A stretch of 64,000 nt of DNA from an uncultured Candidatus Saccharibacteria bacterium (GCA_964630375.1 CAZVRT010000002.1:41706-105705), one strand, 5' to 3'; positions 1-62,334 are shown, numbered from the stretch's first letter. Numbers and translations are program-made. The notes: generated by a model not told the origin, from the sequence alone.

Positions 1-1244
1 GCTTCAGCAGTCGGCTTCAACTGTCCAACAATATCTGAAACCAGCGCACGAAAATCAAAATTCACTTTTCGATAATTCACAGTTCCGTCTTGCAAGTTTG
101 AAGCATCAAGCAAAGATTTCACCATTTGCACAGCTTGTGTGTTTGTATCAAATCCAACATCAACCAACTTTTTCGCTTCCGGAGTCAACGCACCATACTC
201 CCCGTTTTTCAATGCATCAAAGATAAGTCGTGATCGAGTCAAAAATCCTTTCACTTGGTGGTTAATAAATCTCATCAAAGATTCTTGCTGAGAATTTGCT
301 TTTTGTAAATTTTGTCGAGCAACAACTTCGGACTTCACACTTCTAACCAAGAAATATCCCAAAATCGTAATCAACAACAAGTTCACGATAACAATCATTC
401 TCACCAAACTGATTGTTTGCAAAAAGAAAAGTGAAAGAGTTAGAACCCAAAGTCCAACAACTAAAACTTGAGTTGGTAAAATTTTTGTATTAAAAGCTCC
501 ATGTTTTGCAACCAAGTAAGATAGAATTCCGATAAAAATTGGCATTCCAAATAATCCATATTGAGCAACACTCCAATCCAAAGCTAAGCTTCCAAAAATA
601 TTTCCAAATGAAAACATCAATAAGAACATCAACGCACCAACAAAAATTAAAACATTTTTTGAAATTTTTGACTTGTCTTTTTCTGACTTAATAGATTTCA
701 ATCCAGAAATAATAATTAATCCAACTATTACTAACTCAACAAAATAAGCATATCTCCACAACGGGCCTTCAATCGCTTCTCTATCACAGTTCGTAAAATC
801 AAAACCTGTAAGGTTTAGAGCTGTAGGAGCAAGAAAAATTATTGGCAAAAACAAAATGAATAAAGTTATTGTATTAGAAACTGGTAATTCTTTCCTAAAC
901 AAATATTGATACACAAAAATATAAGTAACAATGTAAATTAAAACATCAAAATAAATCAGTGATGCCCAGAAAAACATAACGTAATCAACTCTTTCTGTAG
1001 CCCATAAAACTAAATCAATTAATGACCAGACAACAAACAAGCTAGAGAGAATAAACAAAAGACGATTTAAAGTGCCTCTTGGATTACTAAACAAAACAAA
1101 TACACCAAAAAGCAAAGAAAGAATAGATGGGAACAAATGAGAGTAATATATTAATGGAGAGAAAACATTGTCAGAGAAGATTAAAAAGTTGGCTGTATCC
1201 CATTCACATATCTCCGCACCAATTTTTTGAATATTTTCTAACAT
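1..1244 (-). CDS. Membrane sensor protein, probable histidine kinase; partial, the C-terminus runs off the window start
   Basis: ATG at 1244 on the minus strand. The N-terminal 270 aa are multi-pass hydrophobic. The C-proximal part has an H-box-like 'LMRFINHQVKGFL' and a following 'VNFDFRALVSDIV' segment typical of the HisKA / HATPase junction. It is missing from the ORF track because it is truncated by the window edge. Confidence 0.45.
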   Translation of the reverse strand, partial: MLENIQKIGAEICEWDTANFLIFSDNVFSPLIYYSHLFPSILSLLFGVFVLFSNPRGTLNRLLFILSSLFVVWSLIDLVLWATERVDYVMFFWASLIYFDVLIYIVTYIFVYQYLFRKELPVSNTITLFILFLPIIFLAPTALNLTGFDFTNCDREAIEGPLWRYAYFVELVIVGLIIISGLKSIKSEKDKSKISKNVLIFVGALMFLLMFSFGNIFGSLALDWSVAQYGLFGMPIFIGILSYLVAKHGAFNTKILPTQVLVVGLWVLTLSLFFLQTISLVRMIVIVNLLLITILGYFLVRSVKSEVVARQNLQKANSQQESLMRFINHQVKGFLTRSRLIFDALKNGEYGALTPEAKKLVDVGFDTNTQAVQMVKSLLDASNLQDGTVNYRKVNFDFRALVSDIVGQLKPTAE

Positions 1245-1496
1245 TTTACTTTCATTATTCCTCGACTTCTGGAATTCCGTCCTCAGAATAATAGACTTCG
1301 AAATTATCCCTTAATATATATTCTTCATAAATCCAAAAAATAGAAATCAAAACAAAAACAACAAAAACTACTATAAGTATTTTATTAATTTTATTCACTA
1401 TATTTAGATTGTAGTTGATAGATAAATAATTGCAATAATCTTATGAACAATTATTTTAAAAGAAAAACCTCCGATAATATTTCAATCGGAGGTCTG

Positions 1497-2123
1497 TTAA
1501 AGTTCCCACAGCATTGTGTAGCCTTTTGTAGCTAAATAAGCTGCGCCCGACCAATATGCAATATGCCAGCAAACCATTGGGAGAAGTTTGGCGACACTCT
1601 TTTTTATAAGATCATTCCCACATTCACATTTCTGTGTGTACATGAAAACGCTTTGCGGGTCGAAAACGTGCAGTGTTCCCACCAAGTACAGCAACCATCT
1701 GTTATTCAGTAGCCAGGATTGAAACTTAGTTTGAATCCTAACGTACATCCTTTGCAGAATATGCCATGCAACTTGTGGCTGTCTATCTTTCAACGAAACT
1801 AACCAGAGCTTCAATTGATTGATCGGATACAGAACGGTGTTCTTTCCAAATTTCGGTGGCCTTGTTTTGTGAGCTACTTCCTGCATGGCATGCATGCCAA
1901 AGAGATCTTCACCTCTCTCATACATCGCTCGATAGTGAACCGAGACAATGATTACAGAAAATAGAAAGTAACAAGGAACCGTCACTAGGAAGCAAACGAA
2001 CCAGCCGTAATGCAACGCAAGAAACCAGAGTAATGGATAGAAGATCAAGCGATCCAACCACCCAAAAAACTGATCCCAGGTCAAGGCTTTGACAGTGTTT
2101 ACTGCCAGGTCTTTGGTGCTCAT
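1497..2123 (-). CDS. Hypothetical polytopic membrane protein; GC is about 45%, clearly above the local background
   Basis: 208-aa ORF with several hydrophobic helices. It is Trp/His-rich with no recognisable family motif. Codon and GC usage are atypical for the window. Confidence 0.45.
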   Translation of the reverse strand: MSTKDLAVNTVKALTWDQFFGWLDRLIFYPLLWFLALHYGWFVCFLVTVPCYFLFSVIIVSVHYRAMYERGEDLFGMHAMQEVAHKTRPPKFGKNTVLYPINQLKLWLVSLKDRQPQVAWHILQRMYVRIQTKFQSWLLNNRWLLYLVGTLHVFDPQSVFMYTQKCECGNDLIKKSVAKLLPMVCWHIAYWSGAAYLATKGYTMLWEL

Positions 2124-2190
2124 TTTATAGGGCTATTCGGTTTATAATTGTTACATAAAAATAAGAAAAAGTCAAATTATTTAAAATAGC

Positions 2191-2739
2191 TTGTATTTTA
2201 TTGAAAAAATGGTTATGATAAAAACACACTTTTTAATAAAGTCAAAAAATGATTTTATTAAAAACTATAATGTAATGTTAATGGTCAAAACGAAGGTGAA
2301 AGAGAGTACCATCCCAGGCGCAGGCTTAGGCTTATTTGCGGACGAATTCATTAAAAAAGGAACTGTTACTTGGAGATTTTGCCCTGGTTTTGATCAGATT
2401 TCTTATGAAGACGACCTTTTAAGAATGTCTGAAACAGCAAGAATCCAATTTCTAAAATATTCTTACAAAAGTCTAGATGATGGTCACTATGTATCTTGTG
2501 GTGACGACGATAGATTCATAAATCACTCTGAAAATCCAAATATAATTGAAGGAGAAAATGAAGAAAATTCTGAACCTTTTTCAATTGCCGCTAGAGACAT
2601 TAGACCCGGAGAAGAAATGCTTTGTAACTATTTTGATTATGACGCCAATGCCGAAATGAAGTTGAGTAATAATTTTTCTTACACGCCGCAAAATAATTCT
2701 TTAAATGAAAATTCTGAGTTATCTACATTTCCTTCTTAA
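2191..2739 (+). CDS. SET-domain protein, a putative protein-lysine methyltransferase. The true start is probably an internal ATG near 2281 ('MVKTKVKESTIPGAGLGLFA').
   Basis: SET motifs are present: a GxG N-terminal 'IPGAGLGLFA', 'RFINHSENPN' (the NHSxxPN pseudoknot motif), and a C-terminal 'PGEEMLCNYFDYD' (the ELxxxY post-SET-like motif). Confidence 0.6.
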   Translation: MYFIEKMVMIKTHFLIKSKNDFIKNYNVMLMVKTKVKESTIPGAGLGLFADEFIKKGTVTWRFCPGFDQISYEDDLLRMSETARIQFLKYSYKSLDDGHYVSCGDDDRFINHSENPNIIEGENEENSEPFSIAARDIRPGEEMLCNYFDYDANAEMKLSNNFSYTPQNNSLNENSELSTFPS

Positions 2740-2816
2740 TTAATTCAATACCTCATTTACTTCCCTTTTATTATTCTTTTATCAAAATTTTATCCTCAAC
2801 TTTCTATAATTCTGAT

Positions 2817-3197
2817 GTGAAAAACTTTGATGAGTGGAATGAGGTTAAGAAAAAAACTGATAATGAAGAAAATAGATTATACACAATAAGAGAGATTTGG
2901 TGGTTTAGAATTGGTTTAAATATTGGCACTGAACAGAATGGTAATGGTAAGGAATATACTAGACCATGTTTAATAATTTGCGGATTTGGATTTCATGCTT
3001 GCATGATTGTTCCTTTAACGACTTCTCCGAAACAAAATAGATTTAGAATTAGAATAGGTTTAGTTGAAGAATTTGAAGCAAAAGCCAATATTTCTCAAAT
3101 AAAAGTTATCGACACAAAAAGATTAGTAAGAAAAGTTGGTTTTTTAGATAAAAAGATTTTTGATAATGTAATAAAAAACATCAAAGATTTACTTTGA
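2817..3197 (+). CDS. PemK/MazF-fold protein (toxin-like endoribonuclease fold), paralog 1; GTG start
   Basis: 'REIWWFRIGLNIGTEQNGNGKEYTRPCLII...VPLTTSP...IKVIDTKRL' matches the PemK/MazF signature 'GeiWwv.l.p..G.EQ.G..RPvlVv ... P.Ts ... q.r.iD..Rl'. No antitoxin ORF lies upstream. Confidence 0.5.
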   Translation: MKNFDEWNEVKKKTDNEENRLYTIREIWWFRIGLNIGTEQNGNGKEYTRPCLIICGFGFHACMIVPLTTSPKQNRFRIRIGLVEEFEAKANISQIKVIDTKRLVRKVGFLDKKIFDNVIKNIKDLL

Positions 3198-3344
3198 TGT
3201 TTTTTACATTTGCCTCATCTTTTAGATGTGGCGAGGCCGAAGCCAACTGTTCCTAAATTGTATATAAACAAAATACAAAAGTCAAATATGGAAATTTATC
3301 TTTTCTTTATCAAAACTTCATACTGCATTTTATATAATCCTAAA

Positions 3345-3746
3345 GTGAAAAACTTTGATGAGTGGAACAAAGAAAAACAAGAGATTCACAATACTCCTAC
3401 TAAAAAATTATTTATAAATCCACGAGAAATTTGGCTTACCAAAATGGGTCAAAATATCGGATTTGAAGAAAATGGAAAAGAGAATTTTTTAAGACCGGTT
3501 TTGGTAGTTAAAGTTGTCGGGAATATGTTTTTTACAGCAGCACTAACAACAGGAGGTAAAGATAATAAATTTTATCATAAAATAACTAAAATTAATTTAG
3601 AAAATCCAAAGTATATAGACTCTTCATACTTAATTCTTTCGCAGGTTAAAGTTATGGATAAAAAGCGTTTTTTCAAGAAAATAGGATTTGTAGAAAAAGA
3701 AGAATTTGAAGAGATAAAAACAAAACTCAGAGAACTGCTTCTCTGA
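3345..3746 (+). CDS. PemK/MazF-fold protein, paralog 2. The ORF-track start at 3210 is probably an over-extension, and a GTG at 3345 reproduces the 'MKNFDEWN' N-terminus of paralog 1.
   Basis: 'REIWLTKMGQNIGFEENGKENFLRPVLVV...' shows the same fold signature. A 23-nt stretch around the start, 'gtgaaaaactttgatgagtggaa', is identical to paralog 1 at the DNA level. A perfect 9-bp hairpin, 'ctcagagaa ctgc ttctctgag', overlaps the stop codon. Confidence 0.45.
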   Translation: MKNFDEWNKEKQEIHNTPTKKLFINPREIWLTKMGQNIGFEENGKENFLRPVLVVKVVGNMFFTAALTTGGKDNKFYHKITKINLENPKYIDSSYLILSQVKVMDKKRFFKKIGFVEKEEFEEIKTKLRELLL

Positions 3747-3880
3747 GTTTTGCTTCTTGTTTTGTCTCCTATTTCTAGGAGATGGATCCCGAAGGACATT
3801 TGTATCTACAAGTATATGCGAAATAAAATTTAAAGTCAACTTTAAAAAAGTTATCATTTCTTTATTAAAACTTTATAAAA

Positions 3881-4421
3881 TTAAAACTCAAATTCCTCCG
3901 ACAACTCATAAGCTAATTTGTATTTAGGGTCATTAGGCTCTCTTGTGTAACCCATCTCCCTCAAAACTTTAAACACAGGTATGTGTTTTGCAACGGTTTC
4001 ATCTTTATGAATATTGGTAGGAAATTTATTGTCTGTAAGCAAAACATGTATCAACTCATGTGTGAGTATTTCCATAAACTCATCGGGAGTATATCTGGAT
4101 CTCACAATCAACGGTGCGGACATGTCTCTGTCTGTGGCATTCACAATAAAAACATCAATTATATTTTTCTTAAATTCAAGACCTGTTATGTTGTGAATTT
4201 TTTCTAATGTCTCTGCCCCATTATTTTTAAAAGTTTTTTTTAAAGAGTTTTACTTTTTCTAAAACTTCTTCTGTGCTAGCAAAAATATGATTTGGATATT
4301 TTTTCAAAATATAATCCCTAAAAAATGGTTCCAGTAGTCGCCCGTGACGAATATTTATTTGTGGGTGGTTTTTCATGAATTTATAATTTTCATCATAAAA
4401 TAAAACAAATATAATTACCAC
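3881..4421 (-). pseudogene. Disrupted HExxH zinc-metallopeptidase-like gene, possibly DUF45/YgjP-like, split into two ORFs in different frames
   Basis: The downstream piece, 3881-4144, contains 'EILTHELIHVLL' (HExxH). The upstream piece, 4227-4421, sits in a different frame with an 80-nt gap. Together they would make roughly 180 aa. The family assignment is weak. Confidence 0.3.
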
Positions 4422-4448
4422 CTTGAAATAATTTGCTATTATTTAAAA

Positions 4449-4760
4449 GTGAATTCTGAATTAAGATTAGAAATAGCAAACCTTATAAAAGAACTTTTGA
4501 AAATAACTAAAGAAGAAGATTTAAATTCTGCTAGAAAATTTTATGAAAAAAATCTTCGTGAATTACTTTCTGTAAAAATCAAAGAAATTGACCCTGAATT
4601 TTATAATAAAAATTTTCCTTATTTTATAGAAATAAATGAAATGTTATATGTACATCCGTTTTTTACAAAACCATTCAGATACAAAGAAGATTCTATAAAA
4701 CTTATTCAAGAATTTTTAGAAGAAATTATTTCAAACCCAACTCCCCTTTCTGCTTCTTAG
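4449..4760 (+). CDS. Hypothetical small protein, 103 aa
   Basis: ORF only, with no motif. It overlaps the aspS 3' end by about 35 nt, convergently. Confidence 0.25.
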   Translation: MNSELRLEIANLIKELLKITKEEDLNSARKFYEKNLRELLSVKIKEIDPEFYNKNFPYFIEINEMLYVHPFFTKPFRYKEDSIKLIQEFLEEIISNPTPLSAS

Positions 4761-60633: not shown

Positions 60634-62334
60634 CTACCACCAAACTCCCTCTAAATTAGCATTCTTCATCTGTGTTCTTGTAAGTGGCCCAAAGTATCCA
60701 GAAGCTGGAGAGATTCCATTTGTGGCTTGGTATCTTGCAAGTGCAGACTGTGTTAAAGCACCAAAGAATTCTGTTTCATTTCCTAAAGAACCAGTACCTG
60801 AAGTTGTTATTATATATCCGTTTGAGTTTAGGAGTTTTTGTAGTGAAATAACATCTTGTCCTGTCATTCCTAACTCCAAGTTTCTAACTGGAATATTTGT
60901 TGTTGTATTGGTTGTTTGTATGTTTAGTATATCTAGTATGTTTTGTGGGAGAGATATGATACCTAGAGTGTGTAGTGTTGTTAGGGAGTCTTTGTATTGG
61001 AGTACAATAGAGTTTAGGGTGTTGTTTTTAGCTTGGAGGCTAGAAGGGACTGAGCGAGAAGAAGAGCGACGTGAGGGTTCTTCTGAGGGGGTTTGTTCTT
61101 CTGGTTGTTCTTCAATAGGGTTTTCCTCCCATATAGCATACAGTGTTGTATCAGAGTTTAGTGTGAATGAGTCACCTGGTTGGTATGAGTCTCCTTCACC
61201 ATCTGCTTGTGTGTTCCAGTTTAAGAAGGTGTATCCTTCGTATGTTGGTGAGGGTGGGAGTGTTACAGAGGTTCCTTCATCTTCTGTTATGTCTGGTATG
61301 GGAGATGCTCCTTGGGTGTTGAAGGAGAGGGTGTGGGATGGGAGGGTGAAGGTTCCGCGGTAAATGTAGTTACTATGTCCCACTGCAACTAATTTTGTAC
61401 CATCTGCAGAAGATGTGATTGACCTCCAGGACCTTGCACCAGCAGAAATTTGTTCTGTCCATGTGGCTCCTGAGTCTGATAAAGTGTGTATGTATCCACC
61501 ATTCACACCAGCCGCCAACTTTGTACCATCCGCAGATAAAGTTATTGCTTGCCAACTTCTTAAACCAGCAGAAGTTTGCTGGGTCCATGTAGCTCCTGAG
61601 TCTGAGGAGGTGTATATGTATTCACCAGCACCAGTAGCAGCTAGTTTTGTACCATCATCAGACGATGTTATTGCCCACCAGTTTCTAGAACCAGCGTCAG
61701 TAGAAGTTGCCCATGTAGCTCCTGAGTCTGCGGATGTATAGATGTATCCACCCTGTACCACTGCAGCTAATTTTGTACCATCTGCAGATGAGGTGATTCC
61801 ACGCCAACTTCTAGAACCAGCGTCAGTAGAAGTTGCCCATGTAGCTCCTGAGTCTGCGGATGTATAGATGTATCCACCCTGTACCACTGCAGCTATTTTT
61901 GTACCATCTGCAGATGAGGTGATTGAATCCCAGCTCCTGGAACCAGAATCTGTTTGTTCTGTCCAAGTTTCTCCGGAGTCTGTGGAGGTATAAATATATC
62001 TATCTCCTGAAGAACCACCAACTGCAGCCGCCAACTTTGTACCATCATCAGACGATGTTATTGCCCACCAGTTTCTAGAACCAGCGTCAGTAGAAGCTGC
62101 CCATGTAGCTCCTGAGTCTGAGGAGGTGTATATGTAGCTGCCAAGTGCAGTTGCAGCTAATTTTGTACCATCTGCAGATGAGGTGATTCCACGCCAAAAC
62201 CTTAAACCAGCCCCTGTCAACTCCTCCCACACCCACTCACCAGCAGCTTCTGCAGTTTGGGGTTTTATTATTAGAGGTGAGTAAGAGATTAATAAAGTAA
62301 ATAAAAGTATAAGGGCTGTGATTTTATTTTTCAT
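60634..62334 (-). CDS. Secreted BNR/Asp-box repeat beta-propeller protein with a Listeria-Bacteroides-type repeat and a C-terminal peptidoglycan-binding domain
   Basis: A signal peptide and at least eight copies of 'YTSxDSGATW' (SxDxGxTW) on about 42-aa units. There is a 'TFLNWNTQADGEGDSYQPGDSFTLNSDTTLYAIW' repeat and a PG_binding_1-like C-terminus 'GMTGQDVISLQKLLNSNGY...YQATNGISPASGYFGPLT'. Confidence 0.6.
   Translation of the reverse strand: MKNKITALILLFTLLISYSPLIIKPQTAEAAGEWVWEELTGAGLRFWRGITSSADGTKLAATALGSYIYTSSDSGATWAASTDAGSRNWWAITSSDDGTKLAAAVGGSSGDRYIYTSTDSGETWTEQTDSGSRSWDSITSSADGTKIAAVVQGGYIYTSADSGATWATSTDAGSRSWRGITSSADGTKLAAVVQGGYIYTSADSGATWATSTDAGSRNWWAITSSDDGTKLAATGAGEYIYTSSDSGATWTQQTSAGLRSWQAITLSADGTKLAAGVNGGYIHTLSDSGATWTEQISAGARSWRSITSSADGTKLVAVGHSNYIYRGTFTLPSHTLSFNTQGASPIPDITEDEGTSVTLPPSPTYEGYTFLNWNTQADGEGDSYQPGDSFTLNSDTTLYAIWEENPIEEQPEEQTPSEEPSRRSSSRSVPSSLQAKNNTLNSIVLQYKDSLTTLHTLGIISLPQNILDILNIQTTNTTTNIPVRNLELGMTGQDVISLQKLLNSNGYIITTSGTGSLGNETEFFGALTQSALARYQATNGISPASGYFGPLTRTQMKNANLEGVWW
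61370..62220. repeat. Tandem 126-nt coding repeats, some copies near-identical at the DNA level
   Basis: For example 61690-61770 and 61810-61890 share 'ccagcgtcagtagaagttgcccatgtagctcctgagtctgcggatgtatagatgtatccaccctgtaccactgcagct'. Confidence 0.6.

Follow-up and report, generated by a model that had tools for sequence, protein, structure and literature searches.

The 64,000-nucleotide (nt) stretch of DNA analysed here (the window; GCA_964630375.1 CAZVRT010000002.1:41706-105705, from an uncultured Candidatus Saccharibacteria bacterium) carries a gene for a small SET-domain protein, SET1, which in relatives recurrently lies beside genes for a membrane sensor kinase, a small membrane protein and a second SET protein, SET2. 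We consider it rather probable that SET1 is an active minimal SET methyltransferase that works inside the cell on an endogenous target and is tied to the envelope-sensing kinase and the small membrane protein. The observations behind this reading are the SET fold, the intact motifs, the lack of export signals, the distribution of the family, and the gene linkage, including natural gene fusions.

The open reading frame (ORF) at 2191-2739(+) starts with TTG and specifies 182 amino acids (aa). An earlier note had described its product as a SET-domain lysine-methyltransferase-like protein on the strength of the stretches IPGAGLGLFA, RFINHSENPN and EEMLCNYFDY; all three are present in the translation, and the description was borne out by the searches and by the confident SET fold. 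The Pfam check proposed in that note returned one family only in Pfam-A, SET (PF00856), which scored 55.6 bits (gathering score 22.4, E 7.9e-15) over positions 1-104 of the 105 in the model. Forty-five homologs were collected from 5.8 billion proteins and conservation was computed over 46 sequences with 31-82% identity, all 46 of which carried PF00856. The profile of these 46 members matched, over the entire domain, solved SET structures in the Protein Data Bank (PDB), including KMT2C (2.4e-15), KMT2C/D/A (2e-15 to 4e-13), EZH2 (2e-13), KMT5A (1.5e-10) and LegAS4 (1.9e-10). A profile was needed, as the single-sequence phmmer search of the PDB gave weak matches (best E 0.008). On the Pfam and profile-to-PDB scores, the SET match is therefore far above chance. 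The AlphaFold2 model built on the family alignment had a mean predicted local distance difference test (pLDDT) of 91.9 and a predicted template modelling score of 0.81. In a Foldseek comparison with the PDB, this model had 343 matches at E<=1e-3; the 50 listed were without exception SET or PR domains. The proteins SETD8, MLL (MLL1/3/4), EZH2 and vSET were matched with a probability of 1.0, and Schizosaccharomyces pombe Set7 was also matched. The comparison with vSET had likewise been proposed beforehand, and the model superposed on it (TMt 0.78).

The homologs were nearly all 125-150 aa long, and their first residues (MLMVKT, MLLVKT or MVKT) correspond to M29 of the ORF. Because the homologs begin there, ATG 2275 is most likely the true start, giving a coding sequence (CDS) at 2275-2739 and a protein of 154 aa, in which residues are numbered below; ATG 2281 is a possible alternative. 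The 28-residue N-terminal extension of the ORF showed no conservation in the homologs. In the profile alignment, RFINHSENPN of SET1 paired with RYINHSCAPN of KMT2C, and the canonical Cys of NHSC is a Glu in SET1, a change which fits the absence of a post-SET zinc cluster. GEEMLCNY paired with GEELCYDY of KMT2C, with Y119 opposite the last, catalytic Tyr. Position 117, the Phe/Tyr-switch position of MLL-type enzymes, is a small Cys in SET1 and as such would permit multiple methylation. Neither a pre-SET nor a post-SET region, and no Cys-rich C-terminus, was found in the sequence or in the model. When compared with canonical SUV39/SET2-type enzymes, SET1 had Glu instead of the NHSC Cys and was without the CxCxxxxC post-SET; it is for these reasons a minimal SET of the vSET/Go1-SET architectural type.

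The columns that were invariant over the 46 sequences were S11, G19, L20, F21, A22, N83, H84, N89, I109, G112, E114 and Y119. SET1 is thus predicted to be catalytically active. That it is instead a dead SET-like binding module or pseudo-enzyme we find hardly credible: the cofactor and catalytic residues are all invariant across this range of identity, and vSET is active without a post-SET domain (PMC10117894). What speaks for such a module is that in SET1 the lysine channel is not closed by a post-SET region, and that some SET proteins, for example MLL5, are without intrinsic activity (PMC5094779).

The neighbourhoods of SET1 were compared over 88 fetched loci (L001 onward). A kinase of the family found in the window, and/or a small membrane gene (c3), adjoined SET1 in 17 of these loci (the kinase in 15, c3 in 10). 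SET2, a second and canonical SET with a Cys-rich post-SET, presumably of the COG2940 type, adjoined it in 11. The c3 product is a membrane protein of about 200 aa without a Pfam match, and has a fold of seven transmembrane (TM) helices of the PQ-loop/SWEET kind. The N-terminal domain of the kinases in the 15 loci was 26-100% identical to the reference kinase of L083. The kinase of the window was missing from the ORF list because the gene runs off the window edge (Table 1). It was 37-41% identical to the kinases adjoining SET1 in L090, L091, L093 and L095; a full-length relative matched HATPase_c with 77 bits and had a multi-TM N-terminal domain of about 300 aa, and relatives also matched HisKA. 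The closest arrangement was that of L081-L086 (SET 75-84% identical), with a 545-aa HATPase_c protein (-), a 208-aa protein without a Pfam match (-), the divergent SET (+) and aspartyl-tRNA synthetase (AspRS) (-). The order of kinase, 208-aa membrane gene and SET in the window is the same.

The loci with the kinase or c3 ranged from 34 to 55% in guanine-plus-cytosine (GC) content, and their gene orders and orientations varied. In L032, c3, SET1, SET2 and the kinase all lie on one strand; in L044 and L049, the kinase is divergent from SET1 and c3 is convergent with it; and in L001 and L004, the kinase, SET2 and c3 share a strand from which SET1 diverges. Because the GC range is wide and the orders and orientations differ, the comparison argues for selection on the linkage rather than for an order passed on by descent. 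When only species-representative loci were counted, 9 of about 23 of the Patescibacteria type and 1 of about 57 others had the kinase or c3. The association was also recovered from the other side. When seven c3 proteins were chosen without regard to SET, a SET gene was immediately adjacent in 6/7 independent loci (five of the SET1 type, 41-48% identical to that of the window, and one SET2), and the same kinase family adjoined c3 in 4/7. Natural fusions were found of c3 followed by a SET2-type domain (P0146) and of SET1 followed by SET2 (P0150, P0166); the tail of c3 that precedes the SET in P0146 would be cytoplasmic by the positive-inside rule. Two further proteins (P0191, P0192) hold two SET stretches each. 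SET1 lies next to SET2 in, for example, L001, L004, L017, L024, L027, L032, L036, L039 and L048. That the two paralogs are often adjacent and sometimes fused suggests that they work together. Taken with the kinase and c3, the linkage makes a functional coupling of SET1 to the kinase and the membrane protein probable.

Genes of polyamine metabolism were seen directly beside the c3/SET1/kinase module in several loci (L093 1-3783, L095 1-3804 and L090 3457-3858, and also L014, L044, L049 and L055). They comprised an Orn/Arg decarboxylase, a deoxyhypusine-synthase-like gene, an arginase-fold gene and an AdoMet decarboxylase. No polyamine gene was found near the SET gene in the window.

The linkage of the kinase, the 7-TM PQ-loop-fold protein and SET2 to SET1 was not described in the literature that could be searched, although Aravind et al. 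(2011), who dealt with the gene neighbourhoods of prokaryotic SET proteins, may already mention parts of it. None of the papers joining 'SET domain' and 'candidate phyla radiation' (CPR) treats this linkage.

Several points weigh against SET1 as an intracellular enzyme coupled to the kinase and membrane protein. The linkage is found mostly inside Patescibacteria and could partly be inherited synteny, and beyond that group most SET1 genes lie among unrelated genes. The window holds SET1 only, as a search of its 64 kb for SET2 or c3 found neither. The slot between kinase and SET is occupied by c4 and not by the 7-TM c3, to which c4 is not homologous (hhalign probability 0.2%). Because c3 is replaced by the orphan c4, the module is incomplete or altered here, which limits what the window itself can show. 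The c4 gene has its own terminator-like hairpin and is transcribed divergently, so that co-expression with SET1 is not implied. Secretion of SET1 by a non-classical route is, judged by its sequence, conceivable.

The proposal that SET1 is an effector, made in the earlier note, gained no support. Under it, SET1 would be sent to a host bacterium or partner cell and would methylate nucleoid or other proteins there, in the manner of NUE, RomA/LegAS4, BtSET and BaSET. CPR organisms are frequently episymbionts, which is in its favour. Moreover, every bacterial SET protein that PMC10117894 lists as studied by experiment is a secreted nucleomodulin. The check for secretion signals proposed in the note was negative. 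No 19-residue stretch of the 182-aa ORF passed even a lenient hydropathy threshold, a test which speaks to hydrophobic signals and not to those of the type III or type IV secretion systems (T3SS/T4SS); there is therefore no signal peptide or anchor. The catalytic domain begins at about residue 3 (1-3), and no domain besides SET was found with Pfam, so SET1 is a bare SET domain without a nuclear localisation signal (NLS) or ankyrin-type accessory domain. The only effector family matched, which was also the weak best match in NCBIfam, was T4SS_AnkI (AnkI/LegAS4) of Legionella, at 21.1 bits against a cut-off of 550; the match merely reflects the common SET domain. The composition of SET1 is native, with a GC of 0.346 and a GC at third codon positions (GC3) of 0.277 (window means 0.346 and 0.25). 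The family is present in free-living cyanobacteria, Hyphomicrobium, Myxococcales and Acidobacteria. Its conserved partners are inner-membrane proteins, and the fusion has the SET after a positively charged membrane-protein tail. We do not think that SET1 is exported, and we regard the secreted effector as distinctly improbable.

An endogenous target could also be chromatin, with SET1 methylating a nucleoid-associated protein of its own cell (HU-like or other), as cpnSET does with Hc1 and Go1-SET with MC1-alpha. There is precedent for such self-targets among prokaryotic SET proteins (PMC3980110, PMC10117894), the minimal architecture resembles that of Go1-SET and vSET, and the wide distribution of the family fits a housekeeping target. 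No recurrent nucleoid-protein gene was found beside SET1 in 95 loci, where the recurrent neighbours were membrane proteins, the kinase and a second SET, and nothing in the window ties SET1 to DNA-binding proteins. A role as chromatin regulator is on this evidence unlikely. A non-protein substrate is suggested only by the PQ-loop fold of c3 and, in several loci, by polyamine genes next to the module; SET1 would then methylate a small cationic amine, be it a polyamine or a basic amino acid in free form, that the PQ-loop-fold partner transports. The polyamine genes next to the module could reflect synteny particular to a clade, the window has no PQ-loop partner and no polyamine genes near the SET gene, and we know of no SET enzyme that acts on free amines; such a substrate seems very improbable.

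In the intracellular reading that we prefer, SET1 would be a soluble, cytoplasmic protein that takes a methyl group from S-adenosylmethionine and transfers it to a lysine epsilon-amino group of an endogenous target. Its site of action would be the cytoplasmic face of the membrane or close to that face, and it would act there on a component or an output of the kinase/membrane-protein module, because the gene module conserved in Patescibacteria, this genome among them, includes an orphan sensor histidine kinase and a small inner-membrane protein. Doubtful is a more specific version, in which Patescibacteria would have a hitherto undescribed membrane-associated module for methylation, with SET1 as its catalytic part. 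This module would consist of a multi-TM sensor kinase, a 7-TM PQ-loop/SWEET protein or, in the clade of the window, an orphan two-TM substitute, and one or two minimal SETs. A signal from the envelope or from contact with the host would cause it to methylate either a protein lysine close to the membrane or a cationic amine that is transported and tied to polyamine metabolism.

The nearest named relatives of SET1 were P0006 of Candidatus Paceibacterota (75% identity) and P0015 of Candidatus Nomurabacteria (67%), consistent with the reduced CPR genome suggested earlier. P0015 is already annotated as 'SET domain-containing protein-lysine N-methyltransferase'. When one genome was scanned for each species, relatives with 36-56% identity appeared in at least 346 species, some of these relatives already under the name 'SET domain-containing protein'. 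The species belong to Patescibacteria, Cyanobacteria, Hyphomicrobium and other Proteobacteria, Myxococcales, Ignavibacteria, Zixibacteria, Bacteroidota, Acidobacteriota, Verrucomicrobiota, Parachlamydiaceae, Leptospiraceae, Bdellovibrionales and DPANN archaea. When the profile was searched exhaustively against 1.84 billion representatives, clustered at 50% identity, 220 clusters were obtained at E<=1e-30, 2,928 at E<=1e-10 and, for what is the wider SET superfamily, 17,751 at E<=1e-3. SET genes have been reported in more than 500 bacterial genomes, free-living species among them (PMC3980110, PMC10117894). Contrary to the earlier note, bacterial SET proteins are thus not uncommon, and SET1 is a member of a widespread and already-annotated prokaryotic family of 125-150-aa single-domain SET proteins. 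In a neighbour-joining tree without support values, SET1 grouped with its close relatives and then with Nomurabacteria and other Paceibacterota, and the CPR sequences were scattered among other phyla. This suggests that the CPR sequences are polyphyletic, and is too weak to prove horizontal gene transfer.

The phage and plasmid searches gave no evidence of SET1 on mobile elements. The phage collection (50,697 records) held one distant relative only, at 605188-605541 of LR756504.1, a 636-kb uncultured phage genome; the SET1-like protein there has 39% identity over 77% of the query. In PHROGs, only a partial, weak match of unknown function was obtained (E 9e-5), and the plasmid matches were mostly to chromid-like megaplasmids. 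No PADLOC defence model was matched by SET1, c4 or c3.

The gene c4 is divergent from SET1, as stated in the earlier note. A search of the 5.8 billion proteins found only eight c4 clusters, with 52-100% identity and all from the same Paceibacterota-like clade. Homology of c4 to c3 was considered and rejected on the hhalign probability and on the number of strong TM segments, two against seven helices. The GC of c4 had been put at about 45%; it is in fact 43.4% (0.434), with a GC3 of 49.8% (0.498) against 0.25 +/- 0.06 (mean and standard deviation) for the genes of the window, and only 2.2% of 627-nt windows are as GC-rich. The gene is therefore a clear compositional outlier, and this part of the note stands, as does the restriction of the orphan to one clade. 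The anomaly was shared by the same-slot orthologs in three relatives (GC3 0.32, 0.42 and 0.48, against 0.20-0.29 in the flanking genes), hence a recent horizontal transfer into this genome was rejected and the horizontal acquisition proposed in the note does not hold in that form. The non-homologous c3 that occupies the same slot in a Nomurabacteria relative had a GC3 of 0.46. Likewise, c3 was an outlier in L002, L004 and L087/L088 (z = 3-12 above neighbours) and not in other loci. Raised GC3 in the slot was seen in the window, L081, L083, L085 and L087, even with a non-homologous occupant. Because both the orthologs and the non-homologous c3 are raised, the anomaly is a persistent property of the slot occupant in this lineage. 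One explanation could be that the slot gene has been exchanged repeatedly between Patescibacteria that differ in GC.

The coordinates of the features described are collected in Table 1. The hairpin after c4 was not listed by the terminator scan, in which the loop was limited to 3-8 nt. A consensus scan found 8 promoter-like sites against 5.1 expected from shuffled sequence, which is not above expectation.

Table 1. Features of the SET1 locus, in window coordinates; conservation refers to the 46-sequence alignment.
Feature	Coordinates	Strand	Basis and remarks
Kinase, N-terminal 414 aa of a membrane histidine kinase of about 545 aa with a multi-TM sensor domain	3..1244	-	tblastn 82% identity to residues 1-414 of the L083 kinase; no stop in 414 codons; cut by the left window edge
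Intrinsic-terminator-like hairpin with a 9-bp stem (ACCTCCGAT/ATCGGAGGT) and a loop of 9 nt, followed on the minus strand by a T-run	1467..1493	-	Read from sequence; directly after the c4 stop
c4, orphan 208-aa membrane protein with two strong TM segments (residues 19-37, 42-60), between kinase and SET	1497..2123	-	No Pfam, NCBIfam or PADLOC match; same slot in L081-L086
Divergent AT-rich intergenic region, SET1/c4	2124..2274	.	Sequence
Part of the 182-aa ORF ahead of ATG 2275, probably promoter or 5' untranslated sequence	2191..2274	+	Not conserved; without a hydrophobic segment
SET1 CDS, 154 aa and stop, minimal single-domain SET	2275..2739	+	Pfam, homolog starts, AlphaFold2, Foldseek; upstream alternatives TTG 2191 and ATG 2209; also ATG 2281
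Motif I, P-G-A-G-L-G-L-F-A, GxG S-adenosylmethionine (AdoMet)-binding loop	2314..2340	+	G19, L20, F21, A22 invariant; G17 at least 90%
Motif III, RFINHSENPN, NH cofactor/pseudoknot motif	2512..2541	+	N83, H84, N89 invariant; R80, F81 at least 90%
Motif IV, GEEMLCNY	2608..2631	+	G112, E114, Y119 invariant; Y119 at the catalytic Tyr position; C117 at the Phe/Tyr-switch position
C-terminal tail, about residues 133-154, not conserved	2671..2736	+	pLDDT 56-70 in the last two blocks; differs or absent in homologs

Downstream of SET1, an insertion of about 2 kb separates the SET gene from AspRS in the window (2740-4725) when compared with the relatives L081, L083 and L085. It carries two tandem PemK/MazF-like toxin paralogs, at 2817-3197(+) and 3345-3746(+), with 35% mutual identity and Pfam scores of 47.7 and 42.4 bits; the PHROG match of the two genes was 'MazF-like growth inhibitor'. 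The 98-nt 5' region of the toxin genes is duplicated (2767-2864 and 3295-3392, 73% identity), and the real start of the second gene is therefore GTG 3345. A hairpin lies at the end of each (3172-3206 and 3718-3755). The inserted segment also holds an 87-aa ORF at 3881-4144(-) with an HExxH-type motif (THELIHVLL) and a weak SprT-like match below the cut-off (E 0.028), which may be a metalloprotease gene fragment. At the other end of the window, 60634-62334(-) is its highest-GC stretch, with up to 0.48 in 627-nt windows. The GC at second codon positions of the ORF there (0.56) is unusual, and this suggests a compositionally biased protein rich in Gly, Ala, Pro and Ser.

By itself, SET1 matters little, as one more member of a known and annotated family of small prokaryotic SET proteins, and its use as an effector by CPR organisms gains no support. 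The SET genes of free-living bacteria are many and have no established endogenous role. For these genes, the recurrent linkage to a sensor kinase, a 7-TM PQ-loop-fold protein and the SET2 paralog, together with the natural fusions, provides a concrete and testable handle, and one that comes from organisms with very few regulatory systems.

Among known systems, the architecture of SET1 is closest to that of vSET of PBCV-1 (PDB 3kma) and Go1-SET of Methanosarcina mazei, which like SET1 are single SET domains of about 120-150 aa without a pre-SET or a Cys-rich post-SET. The superposition on vSET had a root-mean-square deviation of 3.4 A over 119 columns, with the GxG loop, the NH motif and the catalytic Tyr kept, but the identity to SET1 is only about 20% and the SET-I insert is longer and helical in SET1 (helices 45-49 and 53-62). 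The targets of vSET and Go1-SET are histone H3K27 or MC1-alpha (PMC10117894, PMC3980110); SET1 differs from them in the linkage of its gene to those of a kinase and a membrane protein. The secreted nucleomodulins (Chlamydia NUE/cpnSET, Legionella RomA/LegAS4, Burkholderia BtSET and Bacillus anthracis BaSET) belong, as SET1 does, to the class of bacterial SET-domain lysine methyltransferases, and the SET domain of LegAS4 was matched by the SET1 family profile. They are delivered by T3SS/T4SS or otherwise secreted, and several have ankyrin repeats or an NLS (PMC10117894), whereas SET1 consists of the domain alone, lacks an export signal and belongs to a family that is often met in free-living bacteria. 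The eukaryotic enzymes KMT2 (MLL), EZH2 and KMT5A (SETD8) gave the best profile and fold matches, and their motifs III and IV align with those of SET1 residue by residue. They share only 17-28% identity with SET1, which is without the partner-binding or post-SET regions and has Cys at the Phe/Tyr-switch position. SET2, the canonical bacterial SET to which SET1 is adjacent or fused, is of the same superfamily, but has about 24-38% local identity to SET1 and differs in its NHSCxPN Cys, its CxCxxxxC post-SET and its C-terminal helical tail.
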